Assembly (NCBI RefSeq): GCF_003334255.1
Contig: NZ_QOWU01000275.1
Origin: Escherichia coli
Lineage (GTDB): Bacteria; Pseudomonadota; Gammaproteobacteria; Enterobacterales; Enterobacteriaceae
Length of the DNA stretch: 257 nucleotides
Reading direction: 5' to 3' (one strand)
Shown here in pieces: positions 1-257 of the stretch (position 1 is the stretch's first letter; every line of letters begins with the position of its first letter). A program made the position numbers and the translations under genes. The notes beneath the pieces were generated by a model. The model did no database searches, was not told where the DNA came from, and saw nothing but the letters and a program-made list of their open reading frames with translations.

Positions 1-257
1 GTGCGTTTTTCCGGGTCATAGTTTGACGGCACCTGGATGATGCGACCGCGGATATGGTAGTTCACCGTCATCTGCTGACCACCAAACTGCTCCGCATCCA
101 CCTGCATCCCCACAATGGCCGTGTTCGGGTAGCACTGTTTCACATCGATGATTTCGGTGTATGACGACCACAGCGTTCTGTTCTGCAGCTGGTCCGTGGT
201 GCTGTCCGCCGTCTCCCTGACCATCCGGATGTTAAAGGGGCGGGGAGGCAGATTATC
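1..257 (-). CDS. J: Internal fragment (partial at both ends) of a lambdoid phage tail tip / host specificity protein J (central tail fibre, lambda gpJ family). Complete codons span + coordinates 3-257 read on the minus strand; bases 1-2 belong to the next codon.
   Basis: Seen in sequence: the minus-strand frame anchored at position 257 is open for all 85 codons, while all three plus-strand frames contain stops (e.g. tag at 19-21, tga at 24-26 and 39-41). Translation is DNLPPRPFNIRMVRETADSTTDQLQNRTLWSSYTEIIDVKQCYPNTAIVGMQVDAEQFGGQQMTVNYHIRGRIIQVPSNYDPEKR. Recognition from memory, not a database search: the blocks NLPPRPFNIRM (+ coords 222-254), LWSSYTEIIDVKQCYPNTA (117-173) and YHIRGRIIQVPSNY (18-59) closely match what I recall of phage lambda J roughly 180-270 residues from its N-terminus. 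Codon usage and GC content fit an enterobacterial lambdoid tail module. Confidence 0.85.

Follow-up and report, generated by a model that had tools for sequence, protein, structure and literature searches.

Gene J of phage lambda encodes gpJ, for which solved structures are available (PDB 8IYK, 8XCG and 9E7M). The Ig-like FNIII-A domain of lambda gpJ comprises residues 72–215 and is inserted into the HDII-insertion between the strands β4 (residues 65–71) and β13 (residues 216–223) of the latter (Xiao et al., PMC10721106); the same two domains have alternatively been named HDII-ins2 (FNIII-A) and HDII-ins1 (HDII-insertion; Ge and Wang, PMC11101478). [quoted passage not shown] A gpJ trimer closes the tail at its distal end and continues as the central tail fibre, and the C-terminal domain of gpJ binds the receptor in the outer membrane. 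FNIII-A, the HDII-insertion and HDII of lambda each hold the plug protein gpI by β-sheet augmentation, and these three domains shift when the tail tip, upon receptor binding, opens for ejection of the DNA.

The stretch of E. coli DNA analysed here (257 nt, hereafter ‘the window’) compares closely with this system. We assign it, with a probability of about 97%, to the interior of gene J of a lambdoid siphovirus, that is, to codons 170–254 of J, most probably as part of an E. coli chromosomal prophage. The J fragment is read on the minus strand from window base 257 to base 3, and the two remaining bases (2–1, likewise on the minus strand) are the first two of J codon 255; the assignment draws on the reading frame, on matches to solved structures, NCBIfam and PHROG, and on DNA identity. 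Six-frame translation of the window identifies minus-strand frame 1, with 85 codons, as the sole frame free of stops, since each of the remaining five contains two to four. The peptide encoded by it is DNLPPRPFNIRMVRETADSTTDQLQNRTLWSSYTEIIDVKQCYPNTAIVGMQVDAEQFGGQQMTVNYHIRGRIIQVPSNYDPEKR. The program-made list of open reading frames contained two short internal ORFs and excluded those running off both ends of the window. By itself, however, an open frame of 85 codons is weak evidence, because shuffling the mononucleotides of the window 5000 times gave at least one fully open frame in 1136 cases (23%). The case for coding therefore rests on homology and on the codon-position pattern, and not on open-frame statistics.

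The homology is extensive. We searched complete E. coli genomes, phage records, Rfam, PDB structures, NCBIfam, PHROG and Pfam. Among solved structures, the best matches to the peptide are entries for the lambda Tip attachment protein J (9e7m, E 5e-44; 8iyk, E 1.1e-43), and residues 2–85 of the peptide align without gaps with residues 171–254 of gpJ in 8iyk. A single NCBIfam family was matched, i.e. NF049904 (lambda_TipJ; E 4e-54, profile positions 170–254 of 1163), and the PHROG search returned phrog_31, ‘central tail fiber J’ (E 1.3e-51), along with related tail families and one unnamed family resembling fragments. In Pfam, residues 1–38 of the peptide match positions 88–125 of the 126 positions of PF24801 (FNIII-A_GpJ; E 2e-11). 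The score of the peptide on NF049904 (183.6 bits) stands against a curated cut-off of 1950 bits for the whole protein, which is inapplicable to the window because the fragment represents 7% of the gene. When compared directly with lambda (NC_001416 16012–16268), the peptide is identical to residues 170–254 of J at 68 of 85 positions, with 17 substitutions and no gaps, and the DNA is identical at 80% of the nucleotides (51 differences). A sequence-only reading of the window had proposed that the only long open frame is a minus-strand frame of 85 codons without stops, and that its product is strongly similar to lambda gpJ. The six-frame translation agrees with the former, and E values of 1e-43 (PDB), 4e-54 (NCBIfam) and 1e-51 (PHROG) bear out the latter; the protein and HMM comparisons with gpJ families, which that reading had named as a check, thus gave highly significant matches to lambda_TipJ, PHROG 31 and FNIII-A_GpJ.

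It might be argued that the window encodes a J-like protein of an F-type tailocin or of another tail-derived machine that is not a phage. Among the weaker hits of the peptide to solved structures are indeed the tail fibre of an F2-pyocin (E 1e-9) and further tail tip proteins of the J-like type (E 3e-11 and 5e-8). The E values of these matches, however, exceed that of lambda gpJ by more than 30 orders of magnitude (E 1e-9 for the F2-pyocin compared with 1e-43 for gpJ), and the prophages that carry identical copies of the window also contain terminase, portal, capsid and lysis genes. Given the gap in E values and the head, packaging and lysis genes at the identical loci, we consider a tailocin origin to be excluded for practical purposes.

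The codon-position pattern likewise supports a J reading frame. The differences between the window and lambda are distributed over codon positions 1, 2 and 3 as 14, 8 and 29 (chi-square p = 0.001), corresponding to 21 synonymous and 17 non-synonymous codon changes, and those between the window and J of prophage PP6 of E. coli E2348/69 (96.9% identity) are distributed as 1, 1 and 6. The G+C content of the window is 56%, with a value of 0.76 at codon position 3 (GC3) versus 0.39 at position 2 in minus-strand frame 1. The bias of the differences and the high GC3 are signatures of a translated frame, and the pattern of differences from both J genes, as judged from the aligned sequences, indicates that this frame is under purifying selection.

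A quite different view would be that the feature of interest is not J, but a gene on the plus strand, an overlapping gene in an alternative frame, or a structured or regulatory RNA. What could be taken to speak for a gene is a 36-codon ORF with an ATG start on the plus strand (54–164), which is open both in the window and in lambda, and a 51-codon ORF with a GTG start in minus-strand frame 3. The former differs from its lambda counterpart at 13 of 36 residues by our own count, which is more than is seen in the J frame. It is moreover expected to be open, because in an antisense frame aligned with the codons of J, stops arise only from TTA, CTA and TCA, and GC3 is 0.76. The latter ORF contains two internal stops in lambda. 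As for an RNA, a search of Rfam with the window found nothing at E ≤ 1, scans for promoter and terminator consensus sequences and for repeats were negative, and neither strand exhibits an excess of folding energy (z-scores +0.53 and +0.58). Hence, we regard any such feature as exceedingly improbable, and retain the assignment to J.

Within gpJ, the window encodes a portion of the N-terminal hub, and not the receptor-binding end that determines host specificity. The residue numbering of J proteins of the window type is collinear with lambda J up to a point beyond residue 600, and window bases 257–120 (minus strand) therefore correspond to the last ∼46 residues of FNIII-A (HDII-ins2), as also indicated by the PF24801 match, while bases 119–3 (minus strand) correspond to the return into the HDII-insertion (HDII-ins1), that is, to residues 216–254 from strand β13 (216–223) onwards, according to the numbering in PMC10721106 and the alignment, which is free of gaps. 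By homology to lambda, to which the fragment is 80% identical, residues 170–254 would thus provide the last strands of FNIII-A and the next strands of the HDII-insertion in the conserved baseplate hub. Assembly as a trimer with gpL and gpI, and opening triggered by the receptor, may likewise be expected by analogy with the lambda structures (PMC10721106, PMC11101478). The identity to lambda amounts to 80% in the window segment versus 69% across the whole of J, the segment being a conserved part of the protein that is related to assembly. As host range is set by the C-terminal domain, which is encoded ∼770 codons further on, the window is uninformative in this respect.

Sequences related to the window are widespread. 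Megablast identified matches with at least 80% identity in 4410 of 5426 complete E. coli genomes (81%), at 14652 places on chromosomes and 50 on plasmids, with a median of two copies per genome and a maximum of 14. There are 28 records that match at 99% or more; the 25 of these that were listed are all 100% identical to the window, and all 25 are annotated there as gpJ or as host specificity protein J. Matches in the phage collection number 251 records, most of them from Stx-converting and lambda-like phages: identities are 95–98% for Stx1a-, Stx2a- or Stx2c-converting phages, ∼93% for PPompW phages, and 83–84% in this search for lambda, 434, HK630 and their relatives. A separate observation concerns the T4-like Aeromonas phage AP1 (MT713136.1), which contains at ∼2940–3050 of the extracted locus (L005) a scrap of J coding sequence of the E. 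coli lambdoid type, ∼100 nt long (...KTTSQFLASVILDNLPPRPFNIRMVRETA). The scrap lies between two genes for hypothetical proteins, in a gap without annotation, and is 98% identical to the window over an overlap of 50 nt; a chimeric assembly or a remnant of recombination is the probable explanation.

Four chromosomal contexts with all 257 nt identical, those of E. coli 55989 (locus L001) and of 600055, STLEFF_47 and NCCP15648 (together loci L003, L006 and L007), were compared. In all four, the genes are arranged in the order H-M-L-K-I-J-lom-stf-tfa, and the same synteny extends as far as stf in E2348/69 (96.9% identity). In 55989, J is preceded by the genes for the tape measure protein, M, L, K (a C40 peptidase) and I, and followed by those for an Ail/Lom protein, a side tail fibre of 1056 residues and a tail fibre assembly protein; the prophage ends at a truncated ompW, which adjoins yciE-yciF-yciG-trpA. 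Strains 600055 and STLEFF_47 carry a tail-tip module of the 55989 type, also at ompW, and in NCCP15648 the module adjoins yecD/aspS and the terminal cargo is a DinI-like gene. As a side observation, the terminal cargo following tfa in the ompW prophages is a gene for a class I SAM-dependent methyltransferase in the opposite orientation (L001 27595–28263, minus strand), and the interval between this gene and the truncated ompW contains pseudogene remnants of a second gene for tail fibre assembly and of a DUF4376 gene (L001 28413–29303).

The heads of these prophages are of two kinds: 55989 and STLEFF_47 possess lambda-like heads (decoration protein, gpE-type capsid and FI), and 600055 and NCCP15648 possess HK97-like heads. 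The tail-tip module that contains the window thus recombines among lambdoid prophages, which is a clear case of modular exchange, and because the surrounding prophages are mosaics, the window does not identify any one phage or integration site. With regard to the distinction between a prophage and a free phage, identical copies are located at the truncated ompW or at yecD/aspS, and one is found in a linear, phage-labelled record of 31.5 kb. These contexts also fit what had been predicted about the surroundings of the window. It had been placed in a phage or prophage rather than in the core chromosome, and the identical DNA is indeed annotated as gpJ inside prophages; M, L, K and I, expected upstream and hence at higher plus-strand coordinates, are seen there in the four identical loci; and for the side tail fibre and cargo genes expected downstream, we find lom, stf, tfa and either the methyltransferase or the DinI-like gene. 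The lambda order of I and J that had been assumed holds as well, but the two genes are not directly adjacent, being separated by a spacer of 240–342 bp that contains pasB.

The copy of J in E. coli 55989 is intact. It comprises 1157 codons (L001 19494–22967) without an internal stop, the window representing codons 170–254, and the full-length protein scores 2368.6 bits on NF049904 over profile positions 1–1163, above the curated value of 1950. Pfam matches extend from PF24801 (residues 86–207), PF13550 (331–491) and PF24421 (609–712) to PF24489 (714–816), PF09327 (870–998) and PF12421 (1027–1157), which together constitute the full architecture of gpJ: FNIII-A, the hub (Phage-tail_3), two Ig/FNIII domains, the tip fibre and the receptor-binding Ig domain.

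This bears on the question of whether the window, although derived from J, might originate from a pseudogene or a defective cryptic prophage that provides no working tail tip. Such an origin is suggested by CP025907.1 (locus L008), the linear 31.5-kb record mentioned above, which stems from an E. coli isolate from Mali, is unannotated, and is the only phage-labelled record that is 100% identical to the window. There, 97 nt beyond window base 1, J has lost one nucleotide of a GGG triplet (ATGGGAAAA → ATGGAAAA), and the deletion at ∼12885 (corresponding to L001 20354–20356) splits the gene into two overlapping ORFs (12025–12993 and 12846–15497). The segment is furthermore present in multiple copies per E. 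coli genome (median 2, up to 14), and many such prophages are defective. On the other hand, J is annotated as an intact CDS of 1157 codons without a pseudogene flag in all four identical chromosomal contexts, in agreement with the translation of the 55989 gene, and the window is itself free of stops and indistinguishable from these four intact copies. The loss of a single base from a homopolymer is also typical of long-read sequencing error, so that the deletion in CP025907.1 may be either such an error or a true frameshift; in both cases it concerns the function of that copy and not the identity of the gene. Overall, a defective source copy appears rather unlikely. The sequence-only reading had regarded a break of the frame just outside the window as an argument against J: such a break does exist in CP025907.1, whereas the four chromosomal copies are intact, and the identity of the gene is unchanged.

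The spacer between I and J merits separate consideration. PasB is an Hfq-dependent sRNA of 83 nt encoded on the minus strand of E2348/69 at NC_011601 1466343 → 1466261, for which the Northern probe AATCCCGCAGTGATCGCGGAGCT was published (Pearl Mizrahi et al. 2021, Table S6, PMC8550237). In E2348/69, these coordinates fall between the end of gene I (1466255) and the start of gpJ (1466496). In 55989, the I–J spacer measures 342 bp (L001 19152–19493), and the probe is matched exactly at L001 19162–19184; it also matches loci L004, L006, L007 and L008, with one substitution in the probe region at locus L003. Strains 55989 and E2348/69 are 100% identical both in the 83-nt RNA and in the promoter that precedes it. 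Taken together, the coordinates, the probe match and the identity of RNA and promoter identify the gene located in the spacer beside J of the window type as pasB (L001 19157–19239, minus strand, equivalent to NC_011601 1466261–1466343). It is situated outside the window, ∼0.75 kb upstream in the sense of J, and is antisense to the tail operon. Its promoter is close to the consensus (TTCACA-16-TATAAT, 11 of 12 positions; L001 19288 → 19261, minus strand), and a hairpin followed by seven T (L001 19181 → 19165, minus strand) is found ∼80 nt past the promoter.

Among the loci examined, pasB is present in the I–J spacer of four chromosomal prophages and one phage record. The spacer itself occurs in 1612 of the 5426 E. 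coli genomes; lambda lacks it, and none of the RefSeq records listed annotates it. It matches no Rfam family, with hits below threshold only. An anti-sRNA of the AgvB/AsxR type was considered as an identity for the spacer gene and rejected: AgvB and AsxR are located at the P_R' moron site, and their Rfam models likewise gave only sub-threshold hits. We note that the start of pasB predicted from the −10 hexamer precedes the published 5' end by ∼14 nt (L001 19239–19254, minus strand), which would give an RNA of ∼97–98 nt instead of 83 nt. Either the published end was an estimate from RNA-seq coverage, or the RNA is processed.

A further observation is that the 342-bp spacer of the 55989 type has an extra segment proximal to J, which is absent from lambda and replaced by unrelated sequence in E2348/69. 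It contains a G+C-rich hairpin of 10 bp with T-rich runs on both sides, resembling a bidirectional terminator (L001 ∼19352–19398), and, upstream of this hairpin, a weak promoter-like site (L001 19462 → 19433, minus strand). One may speculate that the segment specifies an undescribed second small transcript, or that it is a terminator which renders J dependent on Q-antiterminated late transcription, but we consider these proposals quite unlikely.

For annotation purposes, the window can safely be labelled as part of the tail-tip gene of a lambdoid phage or prophage; the DNA around it is thereby marked as mobile and mosaic, and as probably present in several copies. Such a label helps in assembling genomes, in mapping and in calling prophages; beyond annotation, its significance is small. 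The assignment is correct but ordinary, as the gene is already known and belongs to the best-studied phage genes, and nothing within the window itself is novel. A practical by-product is that the I–J spacer, which 1612 genomes possess and which is left blank in the RefSeq records listed, contains the gene of the experimentally validated, Hfq-dependent PasB.

When the locus is finally compared with the known systems, its nearest counterparts are the J genes of the 55989 (WP_000514729.1), 600055, STLEFF_47 and NCCP15648 prophages, to which the window is 100% identical at the nucleotide level. The gene order M-L-K-I-J-lom-stf-tfa is common to lambda and these identical-match prophages, whereas the spacing between I and J is 60 nt in lambda and 240–342 nt, with pasB, in the prophages. 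J of 55989 aligns end to end with lambda J at 69% identity, but the protein comprises 1157 residues in the identical-match prophages and 1132 in lambda: the allele that contains the window (55989) has an insertion of ∼23 residues after residue 835 (∼835–860), in the region of the helical shaft. The receptor-binding domain, represented by the last ∼140 residues (∼1019–1157; L001 22500–22967), is by a rough count only ∼40–50% identical to lambda, and because of this divergence the receptor of J of the 55989 type may not be LamB. A more distant comparison can be made with the baseplate hub protein pb3 of phage T5, which, unlike gpJ, combines HDI and the plug in a single chain. Relative to pb3, and as judged from published descriptions, the FNIII-A domain that is encoded in part by the window represents an extra insertion in gpJ.
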